From NCBI GenBank assembly GCA_016180575.1, contig JACPAY010000005.1, positions 3,234 through 67,233 on the forward strand: a DNA stretch of 64,000 nt. The letters are read 5' to 3'. Position 1 is the first letter of the stretch. Each line of letters begins with the position of its first letter. The notes beneath the pieces are model-generated. The model worked only from the letters and a program-made list of their open reading frames with translations, was not told the DNA's origin and did not search any database. A program made the position numbers and the translations under genes. The stretch comes from Candidatus Omnitrophota bacterium. GTDB lineage: Bacteria; Omnitrophota; Gorgyraeia; Aquiviventales; Aquiviventaceae. This document shows positions 10,517 to 48,544 of this stretch, in pieces.

Positions 10517-10576
10517 TCGGGGACAGCCACTAATTTCCCTATGGCAGACTCAAGGAAATCAGTGGCTGTCCCCGAT
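10515..10576. repeat. Family C inverted repeat copy C1 (arm AATCGGGGACAGCCACTAATTTCC)
   Basis: 24-nt arms with one mismatch and a 14-nt loop. Overlaps the ACT-gene stop and the def start. Confidence 0.9.
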
Positions 10577-26024: not shown

Positions 26025-26030
26025 TATAAT
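26025..26030 (+). promoter_or_regulatory. -10 box TATAAT upstream of sodN
   Basis: ggtgtataat. About 45 nt of leader carrying the SD. Confidence 0.4.
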
Positions 26031-26079
26031 GAGGTTTGAGACGCTCAACGCCGCGTGTGCCAACCAGAAGGAGGCTGTG

Positions 26080-26547
26080 ATGTCCTGGATGCAGACCGTG
26101 ACCCGGGCGATGGACCGCCTGTTGCGGATCGAGCCGCTGTACGCCCACTGCGACGTCCCCTGCGGCATCTACGACCCGCACCTGGCCTCCGTTTCAGCCA
26201 AGACCGTCTACACGATGGTGAAGAAGGTGACGGACCTGAAGGACCCGGGGGCGGGCGCGCCGCCGCAGGACGCCCTTGAGTACCGCAACACCGTCGTGCG
26301 CATGGTCCAGACCAAAGAGGCCCACGCGCAGCTGTGCAAGCAGGAGCTGCTCATCCTCTGGACCGACTACTTCAAGCCGGAGCACCTGGCGATGTTCCCG
26401 GACCTCCATGAGACGTTCTGGAAGGCCGCGAAGCTGTGCTCCTACAATAAGCAGCACGTGGATCTGGCGAAGTCCCAGGAGCTCATGGATGCGGTGGGCA
26501 AGATCAGCGAGCTCTTCAAGAAGGCGGAAGCTGCCAAGAAAAAGTAG
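26080..26547 (+). CDS. sodN: Nickel superoxide dismutase precursor
   Basis: Pro-peptide followed by the HCDVPCGIYDP Ni-hook. SD AAGGAGG lies 6 nt upstream. Confidence 0.9.
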   Translation: MSWMQTVTRAMDRLLRIEPLYAHCDVPCGIYDPHLASVSAKTVYTMVKKVTDLKDPGAGAPPQDALEYRNTVVRMVQTKEAHAQLCKQELLILWTDYFKPEHLAMFPDLHETFWKAAKLCSYNKQHVDLAKSQELMDAVGKISELFKKAEAAKKK

Positions 26548-26554
26548 GGCAAGA

Positions 26555-26998
26555 TTGCTCCGCATCGACGGGCACAGCATGGCGCCGGTCCTAAAGGCCG
26601 GCGAGCTCGTCGTGGTCGAGGAGGGCGCGTACGCCTCCGCCGCACCCCGGCGGGGCGACGTGGTGGCGGCGCGCCCCGCGGCGCTGGGCGGCCGGGCGTG
26701 CGTCAAGCGCGTCGCCGGCCTCCCGCATGAGCGGGTGCGGGTCGGCGAGCGGGAGTGGCGGCTTGAGGAGGGGCAGTTCTTCCTCCTCGGCGACCGCGCG
26801 GAGGACAGCCTGGACTCCCGTGCCTTCGGCCCGGTCCCGCGCGAGGAGCTGCTCGGCCCGGTGCGCAAAATCGGGACCGGTTCCATTTTTCATCGCATCA
26901 GGCTGTTGGCGACGATGATGCGCGGGCGCGACAGCGGCGCCGCGGCGCGGGGCCGGGCGGCTTCCCCATTGTGTAACGAAAGCGGCCCTGGCATGTGA
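26555..26998 (+). CDS. sodX: S26-type NiSOD maturation protease SodX
   Basis: GHSMAPVL catalytic Ser motif and KRVAGLPHE. Needs the TTG start at 26555 to retain the Ser. The C-terminal tail reads through element A3. Confidence 0.65.
   Translation: MLRIDGHSMAPVLKAGELVVVEEGAYASAAPRRGDVVAARPAALGGRACVKRVAGLPHERVRVGEREWRLEEGQFFLLGDRAEDSLDSRAFGPVPREELLGPVRKIGTGSIFHRIRLLATMMRGRDSGAAARGRAASPLCNESGPGM
26867..26890. repeat. Family A palindrome copy A3 (inside the sodX 3' coding region)
   Basis: aaaatcgggaccggttccattttt, translated as KIGTGSIFH. Confidence 0.8.
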
Positions 26999-27079: not shown

Positions 27080-27760
27080 ATGGGGTGGGCGCGCTGGATG
27101 ATGGCGGGAATGCTCGTCTGGGGTGCCGGACGCCCGGACGCGCAGGCGGCTGTCCGGATCAATGAAGTGCTGGCCGATCCGTCCGCGGATGCGAATCGAG
27201 ACGGGACGACCCACACGACGCAGGATGAGTTCATCGAGCTGGTCAACACGGCGGCGGAGCCGGTCTTCCTGGAGCAGTGGAGCCTCTCCGATCTCGTGCA
27301 GGTGCGCCACCGGTTCGCCGCTCCGCAGGTCATCCCCGGCTTCGGCTTCTTCGTGGTGTTCGGCGGCGGCGCGCCGCAGGGGTTCGCCAATGCGAGCATT
27401 GCGTCGAGTGGAAGCCTGGGGCTCAATAACGCCGGCGACACGGTGACCTTGCGGGACGCTGGCACTCTCCTGGTGGATGCGGTCACCTATGGGAGCGAGG
27501 GTGGACGGAACAGCTCGCTCACGCGCTCCCCTGACGGGGCCGGCCCCTGGACGCTGCATCAGGGACTCAACGGCCTCCCCTTTTCTCCCGGCACAACGGT
27601 GGATGGCCGCGCCCGCCTCGAGCCCACCCCTCACCTGCCGCCCCCTCCCCTCCATACGGACGCCACAGGCGGGCCCGTCCTGCCGGAGCCGTCCTCGCTC
27701 GTCCTCGTAGGCCTCGGCGGGCTGGGACTGGCGCTGCGCCGCCGTCTCCGCGGCCGATGA
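27080..27760 (+). CDS. Lamin-tail-domain protein with PEP-CTERM anchor
   Basis: VRINEVLADP...EFIELVN LTD motif and C-terminal PEPSSLVLVGLGGLGLALRRR sorting signal. Confidence 0.75.
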   Translation: MGWARWMMAGMLVWGAGRPDAQAAVRINEVLADPSADANRDGTTHTTQDEFIELVNTAAEPVFLEQWSLSDLVQVRHRFAAPQVIPGFGFFVVFGGGAPQGFANASIASSGSLGLNNAGDTVTLRDAGTLLVDAVTYGSEGGRNSSLTRSPDGAGPWTLHQGLNGLPFSPGTTVDGRARLEPTPHLPPPPLHTDATGGPVLPEPSSLVLVGLGGLGLALRRRLRGR

Positions 27761-27799: not shown

Positions 27800-29158
27800 A
27801 TGAAGAAGTTCCTCATCATCCTGGGCGTGCTCATCCTGGCTGGCCTGGTCGTCGCGGGCGTCTTCCTGGCCACGTTTGATGTGGACCGGTACCGGCCGCT
27901 GATCGTGCGCGAGCTGGAACGGGCGATCGGCCGGCCGGTGGCGCTGGAGCGCATCTCGCTCGGCTGGCGGCAGGGGATCGCGCTGCAGCTGAAGGGGTTC
28001 ACGGTCTTTGAAGGCGTCGCCGCCGGCAACCGGCCTGTCATCGAGGTCGATGTGGCGAGCGCCTTGGTGCCATTGTGGCCGCTCCTGCGCAGGGAGCTGC
28101 GGGTGTCGTCGGTGGTCCTGCTGCGGCCCCGCGTCCATGCGTCGCGGGATGCCCAGGGACGCGTCAACCTCGTGGGGCTGGCCGCGGCCGCCGCCCCAGC
28201 GGGAGCGGCCGGGGCGGCCCGTCCCGCGCCGGGAGCAGGGCAGCCTGCCATCTCGTTCCGCGTCGATTCGTTCCGTGTGGCGGACGGCACCCTGCGCTGG
28301 ACCGACGCGATGGCCCAGCCGCCCATGGAGCTCTCGCTCACCCAGGTCGACCTGGCGGTGACGAACATCGCGCCGGGCCAGCCGATGGATGTCGAGCTGC
28401 GCGGCGCGCTGGCCAGCCAGACGCCCAACGTGCAGCTGCGCGGGCGCCTCACGCTGCCAACCCTGGCCGGCGGGCCGGCCGTCGCGTCATCCGGTTCCGC
28501 AGAGCAGGTGCGGTTCACCGTCGAGCGCCTGCCGCTGGAATCCGCGTTCCGCGCGGCCGCCGACGCGCCGCAGCTGCGCGGCACGCTGACCCTGTCGCTG
28601 GAATTGGATGCGCTCACCCTCGATCCGCAGGTCGTCCGCGGCCTGTCGGGACGCGGCACGGCCAAGCTGGACGAGCCGGTGGTGGCGAACCTGAATGTCC
28701 TGCGGGCGGTGCTTGAGAAGTTCGCAATGATCCCGGGCCTTGTCGAGACGCTGGAGGCGCGCCTGCCGGAATCCGAGCGCGCCAAGCTCAACGCCAAGGA
28801 CACCGTCCTGAAGCCGATCGAGCTCTCGATGCTCCTCGAGGCCGGCGTCCTCCGGTTCACGGGCCTCACGGTGCAGAGCGACACGTTCGGCCTGGACGGG
28901 AGCGGGAGCGTCGGCTTTGATGGCACGGTGGATGTCCGCTCCACCCTGCGCGTCGACCCCGCCCTTTCCGCCGCCCTGGTCCGCAGCGTCAATGAGCTGC
29001 AAGGGCTGGCGAACGACACGGGGGAGCTGGAGATTCCCTTGACCGTCCAGGGCCAGGCGCAGCGCCTGGCGGTGGTGCCGGACCTCCAGTACGTGGCCTC
29101 GAGGATCATCGCCACCAGAGCGATCGACCTGCTCGGAGAGGTCTTGCGCAAGCAGTAA
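27800..29158 (+). CDS. AsmA family protein
   Basis: N-terminal anchor MKKFLIILGVLIL and DVDRYRPLI..., followed by a long beta-rich body. Confidence 0.65.
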   Translation: MKKFLIILGVLILAGLVVAGVFLATFDVDRYRPLIVRELERAIGRPVALERISLGWRQGIALQLKGFTVFEGVAAGNRPVIEVDVASALVPLWPLLRRELRVSSVVLLRPRVHASRDAQGRVNLVGLAAAAAPAGAAGAARPAPGAGQPAISFRVDSFRVADGTLRWTDAMAQPPMELSLTQVDLAVTNIAPGQPMDVELRGALASQTPNVQLRGRLTLPTLAGGPAVASSGSAEQVRFTVERLPLESAFRAAADAPQLRGTLTLSLELDALTLDPQVVRGLSGRGTAKLDEPVVANLNVLRAVLEKFAMIPGLVETLEARLPESERAKLNAKDTVLKPIELSMLLEAGVLRFTGLTVQSDTFGLDGSGSVGFDGTVDVRSTLRVDPALSAALVRSVNELQGLANDTGELEIPLTVQGQAQRLAVVPDLQYVASRIIATRAIDLLGEVLRKQ

Positions 29159-29192
29159 CCCCGCCAGTCCCCTCGCTTTTTTCCCGCGCGCC

Positions 29193-29222
29193 TTGACGCT
29201 CGTCTCCGCGCTCAGGTAGACT
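29193..29222 (+). promoter_or_regulatory. Sigma70-type promoter for the riboswitch-controlled operon
   Basis: TTGACG - 18 nt - TAGACT. The predicted TSS is just upstream of the aptamer. Confidence 0.5.
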
Positions 29223-29231
29223 TCATTCAAT

Positions 29232-29349
29232 ACTCTCGAAACGGCAAACTTCCCGCAAGGGAGGGACGCAAAGCCGCGGGTCCTGGTGCCTGGCTCTTCG
29301 CGAAGCGAAGTGCCTGGCACCGGAAGGATAGCCGGGCTACCGAAAGAGG
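29232..29349 (+). promoter_or_regulatory. c-di-GMP-I (GEMM-I) riboswitch
   Basis: ACGGCAAAC-[ttccc GCAA gggag hairpin]-GGGACGCAAAGCC-[long P2 hairpin ggtgcc..ggcacc]-AAGGATAGCCGGGCTACCGA matches the order and conserved blocks of the Vc2-type aptamer as I recall them. Ends at the ATG of the DUF948-like gene. Confidence 0.75.
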
Positions 29350-29673
29350 ATGACTGACGCGCTTCTGCTCGTGATTGCTGCAAGCATCATCGGCGTGTGC
29401 CTCCTCGCGACCACCCTTGCCACTCTCTCCACCATGCGTGAGTTCCGCGCGACGCTTGGCGAAACACGGGAGCTGCTGGCCAGATGGAACGCGATGACGC
29501 GGCGCGTCGAGGCGGTGGTCGGCTCGGCCTGCGATGCCGCCTCCGCGACGCTCGAGGGGCTCTCCCGCTGGAAGGCGCGGGCGGAGCAGGTGTTCACAGG
29601 CCGATCGGGAAACGGGGCGAGGGCGGAGCCTCGCCGGCATGGCAGGTCAACCAGAGGAGGGGAACGGGGATGA
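29350..29673 (+). CDS. DUF948-like small membrane protein
   Basis: N-terminal TM plus helical region. First gene downstream of the GEMM-I riboswitch. Confidence 0.5.
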   Translation: MTDALLLVIAASIIGVCLLATTLATLSTMREFRATLGETRELLARWNAMTRRVEAVVGSACDAASATLEGLSRWKARAEQVFTGRSGNGARAEPRRHGRSTRGGERG

Positions 29674-29987
29674 AGCGGACTCGTCGAGGGAAGACAGGGT
29701 TGCTGCAGGCGACGGCTTCATTTGTGCTGGGGGCGGTGACGGGGGCCATCGTGGCGCTGCTCTACGCCCCCACATCCGGGCAGGTCGCCAGGAGACGGCT
29801 GGCGATGAAGGCCCGCGGGCTGCAGCGCACCGCGGTCCGGCGTCTCGGCCGCGCCCAGCGGGCGCTGGCGACGAAGGCCGAGCACGTCCGCGAGGCGGCC
29901 GCCGGATGGATGACGGAGCGCTTCCCGGTCCGGAACGGCCGGCATCCGATCCGCCATCGCGCGATCCGTCACGCGGCGGCGCGGTAA
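29670..29987 (+). CDS. YtxH domain protein
   Basis: GAVTGAIVALLYAPTSGQVARRRL YtxH signature. ATGA overlap with the preceding gene. Confidence 0.65.
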   Translation: MKRTRRGKTGLLQATASFVLGAVTGAIVALLYAPTSGQVARRRLAMKARGLQRTAVRRLGRAQRALATKAEHVREAAAGWMTERFPVRNGRHPIRHRAIRHAAAR

Positions 29988-29990
29988 GTT

Positions 29991-30053
29991 AATCGGGGAC
30001 AGCCACTAATTTCCTAGTGGTGGCCGAAGGGAAATTAGTGGCTGTCCCCGATT
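29991..30053. repeat. Family C inverted repeat copy C2
   Basis: Perfect 24-nt arms at 29991-30014 and 30030-30053. Confidence 0.9.
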
Positions 30054-30098
30054 GTTTCCCGATTGTTTCCCCAATTGTTGGCGATTGTTTGCTATAAT
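30049..30098 (+). promoter_or_regulatory. Four tandem 11-bp iterons (CGATTGTTTCC x2, CCAATTGTTGG, CGATTGTTTGC) abutting a TATAAT box
   Basis: Iterons at 30049-30092; TATAAT at 30093-30098. The first iteron overlaps the end of element C2. Confidence 0.6.
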
Positions 30099-30158
30099 AC
30101 GCTCACTACACGGAGCTTTTGCCTTCCTGCATCGCACGCCTGAATCCGTACTGTATCC

Positions 30159-30323
30159 ATGCGCAACCGCGCCGCCCGCGACATCGGCGAGGAACTGAAA
30201 CAGATCCTCGCGCGGCTCAGGGCGCTGGCGAAGGATGAGCGCGCCGCGCGCGGCCCTGAAGCCGAAGCCCTGGAGATCGCCATCGTGAACCTCGACAGCG
30301 CCATCGAGATCCTGACGGAGTAG
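30159..30323 (+). CDS. Unannotated 54-aa helical protein (MRNRAARDIGEELKQILARL...)
   Basis: Below the ORF-track size cutoff. ATG..TAG in frame with strong GC3 bias. Stop is 2 nt before the next start. Confidence 0.5.
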   Translation: MRNRAARDIGEELKQILARLRALAKDERAARGPEAEALEIAIVNLDSAIEILTE

Positions 30324-30325
30324 CC

Positions 30326-30610
30326 ATGCCGGACATCAGCGTGACCACCGCCGCCACGAACGACGGCTGGACCTTCGGCGTGCAGGTGGCGGAGGCGAAC
30401 GGGCAGACGCGGCACAGCGTCACCCTCAGCCAGCGGGACTTCGCGCAGCTCACCGAAGGCAAGCAGACCACGCCGGAGGAGCTGGTGCGAAAGTCCTTCG
30501 AATTCCTCCTCGAGCGGGGGCCGAAGCACCAGATCCTGCGCCAGTTCGACCTGCCGGCGATCGTCCGGTACTTCCCCGACTACCCCACCGCCATCCGCAG
30601 CAAGCTCTAG
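30326..30610 (+). CDS. Conserved hypothetical 94-aa protein (ELVRKSFEFLLERGPKHQILRQFDL..RYFPDY)
   Basis: High GC3. The motif resembles a widespread uncharacterised small-protein family as I recall it; not verifiable here. Confidence 0.6.
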   Translation: MPDISVTTAATNDGWTFGVQVAEANGQTRHSVTLSQRDFAQLTEGKQTTPEELVRKSFEFLLERGPKHQILRQFDLPAIVRYFPDYPTAIRSKL

Positions 30611-47188: not shown

Positions 47189-48491
47189 GTTCGCCTTCCC
47201 GGACGGCTTCCTCTGGGGCAGCGCCACCTCCGCCCACCAGGTCGAGGGGGACAACGTCCACAGCGACTGGTGGGCGTGGGAGCAGGCCGGCCGCGTGAAG
47301 GAGCCCTCCGGGCTCGCCTGCGACCACTACCGGCGCTTCGCGCAGGATTTCGACCTCGCAGCGGAGCTGGGACACAACGCGCACCGCTTCTCGGTTGAGT
47401 GGAGCCGCCTCGAGCCCGCGGAGGGCCGGTGGGACGAGGCGGCGCTTGCGCACTACGTCGAGGTGGTGCGCGCGCTCCGCGCGCGGCGCCTGGAGCCGAT
47501 CGTGACGCTCCACCACTTCACCACCCCCCAATGGTTCGCCTTGCGGGGCGGATGGGTGCGGCCGGACTCGGTGGAGGCCTTCGCGCGGTATGTCCGCCGG
47601 GTCGCCGCGGCGCTGGGCGATTCGGTCCGGTACTGGGTCACCATCAACGAGCCGATGGTCTATGTCCGGATGCATTACATTCAGGGATTGGGCCCGCCCG
47701 GCGCCCGCGACCTCCCGCAGGCGCTCCGCGTCATCGAGCATCTCATCCGCGCCCACGCGGCCGCCTACCGCGTGCTGCACGGCGCGCGCCGCGGGCCAGG
47801 CCCGGCCCCGCAGGTCAGCGTCGCCCATCACGCCCCCGCCTTCGGGCCGTGCCGGCGGTGGTGGCCGCCGGACCGCTGGATGGCCGCGCGGACCGACCGC
47901 GTGTTCAACTGGGCGCTCCTCGAGGCGCTGACCGAGGGCCGGTGGGTCGTGCCCGGAGTGGGGAAGTGGCGCATCCCGGAGGCCGCAGCGACGCTCGACT
48001 ATGTCGGCGTGAACTTCTACGGGCGGCAGTTCATCCAGTGGGCCCCCGCGGCGGGCGCGTGGCCCGGCGCGAGCTGCGACCTGGGACACCATCCGCGGGA
48101 GGTCACCGAGCGCACCTCGTACGGCTGGGATGTGCACCCGGCCTCCTTCGTGCAGGTCCTCTCGCGCATCGGGCGGATGGGGCGGCCGATCCTCGTGACG
48201 GAAAACGGCACCTACATGCAGGACGACGCCAGGCGCTGGGACTTCATCCTGCGCCACGTGCAGGCGATGGCGCGCGCGTTCCAGCAGGGCGCGCGGATCA
48301 TCGGCTACTGCTACTGGTCGCTCCTCGACAACTTTGAGTGGGCGGATGGGTTCGGCCCGCGCTTCGGCCTGGCGGAGGTGGACTACGCGACCCAGCGGCG
48401 GACCATCCGAGACAGCGGCCGCCGGTACGCGGAGATCTGCCGCGCCAACCGCGTGGAAATCGGGGACATGGAAATCGGGGACAGCCACTAA
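47181..48491 (+). CDS. GH1 beta-glucosidase
   Basis: FLWGSATSAHQVEG, TINEP (acid/base) and VTENG (nucleophile) motifs. The last ~10 codons and the stop are encoded by element C3. Confidence 0.85.
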   Translation: MPEFAFPDGFLWGSATSAHQVEGDNVHSDWWAWEQAGRVKEPSGLACDHYRRFAQDFDLAAELGHNAHRFSVEWSRLEPAEGRWDEAALAHYVEVVRALRARRLEPIVTLHHFTTPQWFALRGGWVRPDSVEAFARYVRRVAAALGDSVRYWVTINEPMVYVRMHYIQGLGPPGARDLPQALRVIEHLIRAHAAAYRVLHGARRGPGPAPQVSVAHHAPAFGPCRRWWPPDRWMAARTDRVFNWALLEALTEGRWVVPGVGKWRIPEAAATLDYVGVNFYGRQFIQWAPAAGAWPGASCDLGHHPREVTERTSYGWDVHPASFVQVLSRIGRMGRPILVTENGTYMQDDARRWDFILRHVQAMARAFQQGARIIGYCYWSLLDNFEWADGFGPRFGLAEVDYATQRRTIRDSGRRYAEICRANRVEIGDMEIGDSH

Positions 48492-48544
48492 TTTGCGAAT
48501 GGGAACAATTGTGTCCAGGCTTAAATTAGTGGCTGTCCCCGATT
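48455..48544. repeat. Family C inverted repeat copy C3 with 15-nt tandem duplication of the left end
   Basis: ggaaatcggggacat/ggaaatcggggacagccactaattt ... aaattagtggctgtccccgatt. Confidence 0.85.

Follow-up and report, generated by a model that had tools for sequence, protein, structure and literature searches.

Upstream of tfoY, Vibrio cholerae carries the riboswitch Vc2, which belongs to family RF01051 and to the c-di-GMP-I (GEMM-I) class of RNAs that bind c-di-GMP (cyclic diguanosine monophosphate). The class itself is long known; RNAs can belong to it without a tetraloop receptor, as receptor-less 'type 2' GEMM RNAs do, and an A at position 20 (Vc2 numbering) is typical of aptamers for cyclic AMP-GMP (c-AMP-GMP). 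The c-di-GMP-I-GGC variant (RF03167) was reportedly defined by Weinberg et al. in 2017 (PNAS 114:E2077), and further papers mentioning it merely give it in lists. In Vc2 the ligand is contacted by G20, A47 and C92 (PMC4744006, PMC5888326), with G20 contacting one guanine of c-di-GMP (PMC5888326, PMC4744006) and C92 forming a Watson–Crick pair with the second (PMC5888326), and the inter-helical C44–G83 pair is universally conserved (PMC4744006). The class is known for controlling very diverse membrane and 'environment' genes, and c-AMP-GMP riboswitches are rare variants of it (PMC7266159). Here we describe an aptamer of this class on a 64,000-nucleotide (64 kb) stretch of DNA from a Candidatus Omnitrophota bacterium (the window), where it precedes an operon of two open reading frames (ORFs), the DUF948-like ORF1 and the YtxH gene ORF2. 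Taken as a whole, the locus is probably a receptor-less c-di-GMP-I riboswitch at the 5′ end of a bicistronic ORF1-ORF2 mRNA, working as a translational OFF switch.

The nearest described gene pair is that of Bacillus subtilis, where YtxG belongs to DUF948. YtxG and YtxH are of unknown function in B. subtilis, the two families being widespread, stress-associated and likewise of unknown function, and the Bacillus ytxG-ytxH-brxC genes are served by sigma-B and sigma-H promoters and by no riboswitch (PMC8113031). In open-access papers and preprints we found no relevant report linking YtxH to a riboswitch or DUF948 to c-di-GMP. What goes beyond the textbook at the present locus is thus the phylum (Omnitrophota), the association with a DUF948-like and YtxH pair, a leader in relatives that is coupled to a short ORF (sORF), and the repeated clean excision of the aptamer.

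Compared with Vc2 and the RF01051 family, the window RNA has the same 5′ untranslated location, the same three-helix junction (P1, P1a, P1b), the core blocks GGCAAAC and GACGCAAAGCC with the ACCGA ending, equivalents of G20, A47, C92, C44 and G83, and a GNRA loop on P1a. It departs from them in P1b, where the CUAAG..UAUG receptor is missing and a 42-nt hairpin is added, and in J1/2, which is one nucleotide shorter (5 nt against 6). P1 stops 1 nt from the AUG, with no expression platform set apart from it; the organism is an uncultured member of the Omnitrophota, and the regulated genes are DUF948-like and YtxH. Like the GGC variant it has a J1/2 rich in A, a P1b that is short and without receptor, and a 3′ end of the CGAA type; at the A47 position the variant consensus reads G, whereas the window and five related aptamers have A. 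The Geobacter c-AMP-GMP (GEMM-Ib) aptamers have the same overall fold and fall in the same Rfam clan, but the window RNA has G at position 20 and its gene context is unlike that in Geobacter. Like Bacillus ytxG-ytxH-brxC, the window operon contains an adjacent small membrane-anchored pair, DUF948-type then YtxH; unlike the Bacillus operon, it lacks a brxC/ytxJ gene, its ORF1 is no more than distantly related to DUF948, and a c-di-GMP aptamer is predicted to control it.

Aptamer class, structure and ligand pocket

Searching the whole window against all 4227 Rfam families with Infernal gave a single match, RF03167 (c-di-GMP-I-GGC) at 29234–29345 on the + strand, with 62.9 bits (E 1.8e-12) against a gathering score of 59 bits. 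The first-pass annotation, made from the letters of the window, had proposed a GEMM-I aptamer of family RF01051: the clan (CL00126, which holds RF03167 as well as RF01051, gathering score 35 bits) is thereby confirmed, the best-matching family within it being RF03167 and not RF01051. A second CL00126 family also exceeded its own gathering score at 29234–29345, only the top-scoring clan member being displayed; it is either RF01051, whose score was not displayed, or the UAU variant, with RF01051 far more likely. In relatives, too, RF03167 scores highest, so that it is the top model for six of six aptamers, those of loci L004 and L006 reaching 64.8 and 65.0 bits. Further weak Rfam matches in a relaxed scan of 29150–29450 were set aside as chance (for example SAM-VI, 16.9 bits vs 57.5), and a symR match in L001 as false, caused by a palindrome. 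That the window element is a genuine aptamer of the GEMM-I / c-di-GMP-I clan is close to certain. Its parts, the blocks and their hairpins being read from the sequence, are as follows.

29233–29348, + strand: c-di-GMP-I (GEMM-I) aptamer, outer P1 end to outer P1 end (Rfam match 29234–29345)
29244–29250, + strand: GGCAAAC block
29249–29264, + strand: GCAA-capped hairpin
29263–29275, + strand: GGGACGCAAAGCC block
29272–29338, + strand: long second hairpin
29325–29343, + strand: AGGAUAGCCGGGCUACCGA block
29233–29238, + strand: P1 5′ strand CUCUCG, pairing with 29341–29343 and 29346–29348 around an AA bulge (29344–29345)
29244–29269, + strand: P1a hairpin, with outer G-C and C-G pairs, an internal loop (AAA/GAC), a stem of 6 bp and, at 29255–29258, the tetraloop GCAA (GNRA)
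29272–29338, + strand: P1b hairpin, with a conserved base (29272–29283 with 29326–29338) and a bulge of A29330 and G29331
29243, + strand: G, equivalent of Vc2 G20 in the Rfam consensus alignment; G in 5/5 aptamers covering the position
29270, + strand: A, equivalent of Vc2 A47 in the Rfam consensus alignment; A in 6/6 aptamers
29339–29340, + strand: A and C, equivalents of Vc2 A91 and C92; UACC invariant in 6/6 aptamers

All of the conserved GEMM-I blocks that the annotation had listed are thus present, in the order it gave. An unconstrained minimum-free-energy fold of 29225–29375 returns P1, the GCAA-capped P1a and the long P1b at −64.4 kcal/mol (z = −3.4 vs dinucleotide shuffles). P1 consists of G29238-C29341, C29237-G29342 and U29236-A29343, then the AA bulge, then C29235-G29346, U29234-A29347 and C29233-G29348. 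The GCAA loop of P1a is present, and the CUAAG..UAUG receptor that would make a type 1 tetraloop contact is absent from P1b. The conserved base of P1b is instead prolonged by a near-perfect, lineage-specific hairpin of 42 nt (29282–29323). It is present once in the window, and we rejected the idea of a mobile or repeated element. Within it, 29291–29297 reads CUCUUCG, a near-duplicate of the P1 5′ strand CUCUCG that could in principle compete for GAAAGAG; the segment is tied up in a 15-bp hairpin, and the other aptamers lack it.

To follow the aptamer through evolution, relatives were fetched via ORF1 homologues, which gave eleven distinct loci; L012, a second contig with the same protein as L011 and an identical aptamer match, was counted with L011. 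Their state is as follows.

Window, L004 and L006: aptamer present, close relatives
L009 and L011/L012: aptamer present, ORF1 identity about 40–48%, 65-nt insertion at the P1a tip
L010: aptamer present, 5′ end cut by the contig edge
L001, L002, L003, L013 and L014: aptamer deleted, promoter kept
L005: contig ends before the aptamer position

The aptamer accordingly stands upstream of an ORF1-like and YtxH pair in the window, L004, L006, L009, L010 and L011/L012, down to about 40% ORF1 identity, and a covariance model built from the three close copies matched exactly these six aptamers and a remnant in L001, with no second copy in the window. In the three close copies 75 of 75 pair cells hold a standard pair and 4 pairs show double changes. 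Across all six, 99.3% of 145 pair cells are standard and 8 pairs show double changes, that is, the substitutions are compensatory; none of 500 shuffles reaches the observed covariation and slid controls pair at 33–51%, the alignment used (A5, which also holds the gap-only L001 remnant as a seventh row) being fitted to the model and so somewhat biased towards structure. The double changes are located in P1a, where 3 of the 6 stem pairs are affected, and in P1b, where five pairs are. The junction of P1, P1a and P1b is kept by compensatory changes, P1 being uninformative: five of its six pairs are invariant, and only the outermost varies, with C-G in four copies against U-G in L009 and L011.

The pocket nucleotides are identical in every orthologous aptamer that covers them, and all six have the equivalents of C44 (C29267, in the GAC) and G83 (G29331, in the bulge of P1b), so that the partners of the tertiary C44-G83 pair are in place and the pair itself is predicted. 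Covariation in six orthologous copies and the canonical contact nucleotides together bear out the c-di-GMP-I aptamer that the first reading had claimed. The difference between the two Rfam models was derived from two printed cmscan consensus lines, that of RF01051 coming from phage phiCD119, a textbook c-di-GMP-I aptamer scanned as reference (73.2 bits).

RF01051 (canonical): core ..GGCAAA..GACGCAAAgCc..GcUgCCgaa, P1b receptor CUAAgg...cuAuG present
RF03167 (GGC variant): core ..GGCAAAC..GACGCGAAgCc..GcUGCcgaag, P1b receptor absent

The sole core difference between the two lines is A47 to G. Where the variant consensus has GACGCGAAg the window reads GACGCAAAG, with A in 6/6 aptamers, and RF03167 probably outscores its parent model because P1b of the window lacks the canonical tetraloop receptor. 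The RNA thus appears to combine a canonical pocket with a receptor-less GEMM-I scaffold, and c-di-GMP is its expected ligand, which we hold to be very likely from the pocket sequence. The A at position 20 that typifies GEMM-Ib is found in none of the five copies covering that position, all of which have G, and c-AMP-GMP is for this reason an unlikely ligand.

In L009 (about 778–842) and L011 (about 2267–2331) the 65-nt insertion replaces the GNRA tip of P1a, and this clade can therefore do without the tetraloop contact. L011 further carries an insertion of about 200 nt between promoter and aptamer (2040–2235), bounded on both sides by inverted repeats (about 27 nt; ccacgggttggtagtggtcaagtttgg / ccaaacttgaccactacccacgggtt) and absent from L009, which resembles a miniature inverted-repeat transposable element or a long hairpin.

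Promoter, start codon and predicted control of ORF1

Two further features frame the aptamer.

29193–29222, + strand: sigma-70-type promoter TTGACG, 18-nt spacer, TAGACT (−35 box 29193–29198, −10 box 29217–29222)
29341–29352, + strand: expression platform, that is, the P1 3′ strand CGAAAGAG, then G, then the ORF1 ATG (29350–29352)

The promoter, already noticed in the first reading, holds up well: it is the only sigma-70-like match in 28900–30300 (1.4 kb, 0.2 expected) and it recurs as TTGACG-N14-CAGGYANNCT in 9/9 distinct related loci with upstream DNA, the 18-nt spacer being constant where checked. It lies about 10 nt upstream of the aptamer, and transcription would start at about 29229–29231, some 2–4 nt before P1. 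At the other end the P1 3′ strand stops one base short of the ORF1 ATG, as had been claimed for the closing helix, the ATG at 29350 coming directly after CGAAAGAGG. A consensus scan of the window leader found no terminator-like site and no separate terminator/anti-terminator, and we rejected an intrinsic terminator there. In all six aptamer loci an AUG lies 0–6 nt past the invariant P1 3′ strand GAAAGAG/GAAAGA, and this constant geometry favours translational OFF control.

In the mechanism that we propose, the promoter would give rise to a bicistronic mRNA with the aptamer at its very 5′ end, encoding two small single-pass membrane proteins, ORF1 and ORF2, translationally coupled through an ATGA overlap. 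With G29243 and C29340 on either side of it and A29270 at the pocket, bound c-di-GMP would lock the junction and stabilise P1 (CUCUCG 29233–29238 with CGA..GAG 29341–29348), and, the P1 3′ strand ending one base before the ORF1 AUG, loading of the 30S subunit would be blocked, such that high c-di-GMP would turn both genes down. For the direction of the switch and for its action on translation our confidence is modest, if on the positive side. Vc2 offers a precedent, being reported as a c-di-GMP OFF switch (bioRxiv 10.1101/617340).

Several observations weigh against this proposal. Among Rfam models it is that of the GGC variant which matches best. P1 is almost invariant and covariation across the six-aptamer alignment therefore gives it no support. 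The GAGG in front of the ORF1 ATG stands at 0-nt spacing, which is not a functional Shine–Dalgarno (SD) spacing, and L003 translates the same gene without any SD, so that initiation here may not depend on an SD at all. The predicted ensemble gains only about 0.9 kcal/mol from P1, and CUUCU (29362–29366) in the coding region is an alternative partner for the AGAGG-AUG region; folding predictions therefore leave ON versus OFF undecided. The aptamer is deleted in five related loci (L001, L002, L003, L013, L014), and control is thus dispensable there. Finally, a crude regular-expression scan of the 64 kb window found no GGDEF motif; extended to EAL, HD-GYP and PilZ over the long ORFs it returned only trivial EAL- and PilZ-like strings, and for 64 kb such a scan is uninformative.

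The same ligand might instead act as an ON signal, the purine-rich strand and AUG being trapped in its absence by the CUUCU/CUCUU of early ORF1 and exposed upon ligand-driven formation of P1. A fold that includes coding sequence indeed pairs AGAGG (29345–29349) with CUUCU (29362–29366) and leaves no more of P1 than its upper 3 bp, a CUCUU/CUUCU run occurs at the same place in L001–L004, and ON switches of the class exist, Vc1 raising gbpA expression (PMC4744006). Yet conserved Leu codons of the transmembrane helix account for the CU-rich run, the AUG under control in relatives is that of an sORF, with quite different sequence downstream of it, and P1, once formed, would still end 1 nt from the AUG, within the 30S footprint. 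Such an ON switch we judge unlikely.

Slightly less probable still is that the aptamer acts mainly on transcription or mRNA fate, by Rho-dependent termination, an intrinsic terminator or an effect on stability. It is common for blocked translation to expose an mRNA to Rho, and in L006 and L010 a hairpin after the aptamer, followed by UUCUUGU, resembles a terminator. The window, by contrast, has no spacer between P1 and ATG and no terminator-like site in its leader, and the consensus scan finds no terminator in L006 either.

That the RNA belongs to the GGC variant or to another variant class and takes a ligand different from c-di-GMP, such as c-AMP-GMP or an unknown compound, is in our view very unlikely. 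The rank of RF03167 in all six aptamers and the P1b without canonical receptor would fit such a reading; the cores of RF03167 and RF01051 differ, however, only at A47G, where all six RNAs have A, position 20 is G in the five covering aptamers and C92 is retained. For annotation this means that an Rfam variant model can outrank its parent for reasons unrelated to the ligand pocket, and that a best match to c-di-GMP-I-GGC should not be taken as variant ligand specificity.

Leader reading frames and aptamer loss in related loci

In L006 (and L005), L009, L011 and L010 an sORF of 34–65 codons lies between the aptamer and ORF1. Its AUG follows the GAAAGAG/GAAAGA strand by 0–6 nt, its stop codon lies across the ORF1 start (ATGA or ATGnnTGA), and ORF1 has no SD of its own in these loci. 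In three of them this strand has the distance from the sORF AUG that suits an SD (GAAAGAG-UGUGAG-AUG, for example). The frames (L006 937–1056, L009 915–1019, L011 2404–2508, L010 91–288) are Arg-rich and start MSAR.. or MLAR..; we regard them as only a candidate peptide gene, long open frames being common in GC-rich DNA. Inside the sORF region, L006 (about 960–1005) and L010 (about 125–175) share a conserved strong hairpin, GCGGUxCCUCU..GCAGGGGUxCCGC, then UUCUUGU, which is possibly an intrinsic terminator and a second layer of expression platform in those lineages; the consensus terminator scan of L006 did not call it.

The window and the L004 lineage have no sORF, and the ORF1 AUG occupies the position next to P1. 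As the comparison of leaders indicates, GAAAGAG was probably the SD of an sORF deleted in the window lineage. The deletion would have moved the ORF1 AUG against P1, and GAGG would stand at 0-nt spacing in the window because the strand served as sORF SD in relatives.

The five loci without aptamer each have a different junction, with promoter and genes kept.

L001: junction CTCTCGAAAA-GGGGCTACCGAAAGAGGATG; both P1 strands remain
L002: junction CTCTCGAAAGGCAAC-CCGAAAGAGGATG; both P1 strands and GGCAAC remain
L003: junction CTCTCGAA-CATG; only the P1 5′ strand remains
L013: junction cattCTCGA, then unrelated sequence; only the P1 5′ strand remains
L014: junction ..GGTTACCGAcacacATGTCGTCCCGATGA..; the aptamer 3′ end and a 4-codon sORF remnant remain

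The remnant in L014 (about 222–236) reads MSSR*. In the close-clade leader alignment (A2) the P1 5′ strand is retained even where the aptamer is deleted. A midpoint-rooted neighbour-joining tree of ORF1 and ORF2 gave (L005,L006),(window,((L002,L003),(L004,L001))), in which aptamer-bearing loci therefore span the root. On this sequence comparison the aptamer loss in L001 appears independent of that in L002/L003 and, counting L013 and L014, we arrive at a putative minimum of at least four losses.

The remaining alternative, that the window copy is a decaying relic without regulation in this genome, draws on these clean losses, on the unique 42-nt P1b insertion and on the lack of a GGDEF match, but is highly improbable in view of the intact core pairs, the conserved pocket nucleotides, the near-perfect hairpin that the insertion itself forms and the compensatory nature of substitutions where the aptamer is kept, which implies purifying selection on structure and so argues against a relic.

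More tentatively, the leader of this clade may be a compound one, made of promoter, aptamer and an Arg-rich sORF coupled to ORF1, in front of the DUF948-like and YtxH genes, and it may have been dismantled piecewise, the sORF being excised in the window lineage and the aptamer, elsewhere, on four occasions or more, the promoter staying in place each time. Were this so, one operon would offer alleles with and without the riboswitch as a natural series, and c-di-GMP would be a first regulatory handle on the function of YtxH/DUF948 envelope and stress proteins. The related loci show riboswitch-leader erosion (sORF lost, aptamer lost repeatedly, promoter kept) and are in this respect useful for the study of riboswitch turnover.

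Regulated genes and neighbourhood

The operon and its surroundings comprise the following.

29350–29673, + strand: ORF1, 107 aa, with an N-terminal transmembrane helix, a helical region and a C-terminal GNGxRxEPRRH motif
29670–29987, + strand: ORF2, 105 aa, YtxH-like, its start overlapping the ORF1 stop as ATGA and its own GAGGAGG 8 nt upstream
27080–27760: lamin-tail-domain (LTD) protein with PEP-CTERM motif (Pfam)
27800–29158: AsmA-family gene (Pfam)
29995–30049, + strand: perfect 20-bp palindrome, repetitive-extragenic-palindrome (REP)-like, directly after the ORF2 stop

Of the DUF948/YtxH operon proposed in the first-pass annotation, the YtxH half is confirmed, ORF2 matching Pfam YtxH (PF12732) over residues 17–75 with 38.7 bits against a cut-off of 37.5 (E 1.3e-9). 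The DUF948 half stands for relatives of ORF1 and there only below threshold. Window ORF1 gave no DUF948 (PF06103) match at E <= 0.1 and no Pfam match of its own; four of ten close orthologues match DUF948, sub-threshold (best E 0.0012), and for distant members of the family 27 bits is the highest score, the cut-off being 37.2. ORF1 is thus best described, on these profile comparisons, as a remote relative of DUF948 and not a member by Pfam standards. An NCBIfam search of ORF1 and ORF2 returned noise only.

A hidden Markov model built from the ORF1 orthologues collected 185 cluster representatives of 100–135 aa, which share the N-terminal transmembrane helix and the C-terminal GNGxRxEPRRH motif. 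The ORF1 start ATG is conserved in all orthologues and each of the loci fetched has a YtxH gene after its ORF1 homologue, the orthologous downstream genes matching PF12732. Genome and metagenome scans with the ORF1 alignment found no loci beyond those already collected. A conserved riboswitch before the DUF948-like/YtxH pair would place both in the c-di-GMP regulon of an uncultured phylum, and this placement suggests that they act in the envelope or in switches of lifestyle, a testable hypothesis.

Pfam also confirmed the PEP-CTERM and AsmA neighbours that had been pointed out, as the LTD/PEP-CTERM protein at 27080–27760 and the AsmA gene at 27800–29158; both lie before the promoter and hence outside the regulated unit. 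The palindrome at 29995–30049 probably marks the end of the transcription unit, as terminator or insulator. It is one of three window copies (10519–10573, 29995–30049, 48477–48540; 0 expected by chance) of a REP-like repeat consisting of GGGGACAGCCACTAATTTCC, about 15 nt and an inverted copy. After it, 30047–30098 holds a short run of CGATTGTTTCC-like tandem units and then a TATAAT box, which precedes conserved ORFs of 54 aa (30159–30323) and 94 aa (30326–30610), syntenic in all related loci and without family assignment.

The 1414-aa protein P0012 contains 15 tandem stretches matching the central helical part of the ORF1 profile (E 1.5e-21) and is a repeat protein of DUF948-like units. Upstream of the LTD gene, 26029–26547 holds an ORF that resembles nickel superoxide dismutase (HCDVPCGIYDP motif); the one after it, which ends at 26998, resembles a signal peptidase, and these two match the Sod_Ni and Peptidase_S26 pair of the syntenic locus L001. 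The neighbourhood is conserved clade-wide, in the order Sod_Ni, S26, LTD/PEP-CTERM, AsmA and riboswitch operon, with RF-1 and a prolyl isomerase farther on.

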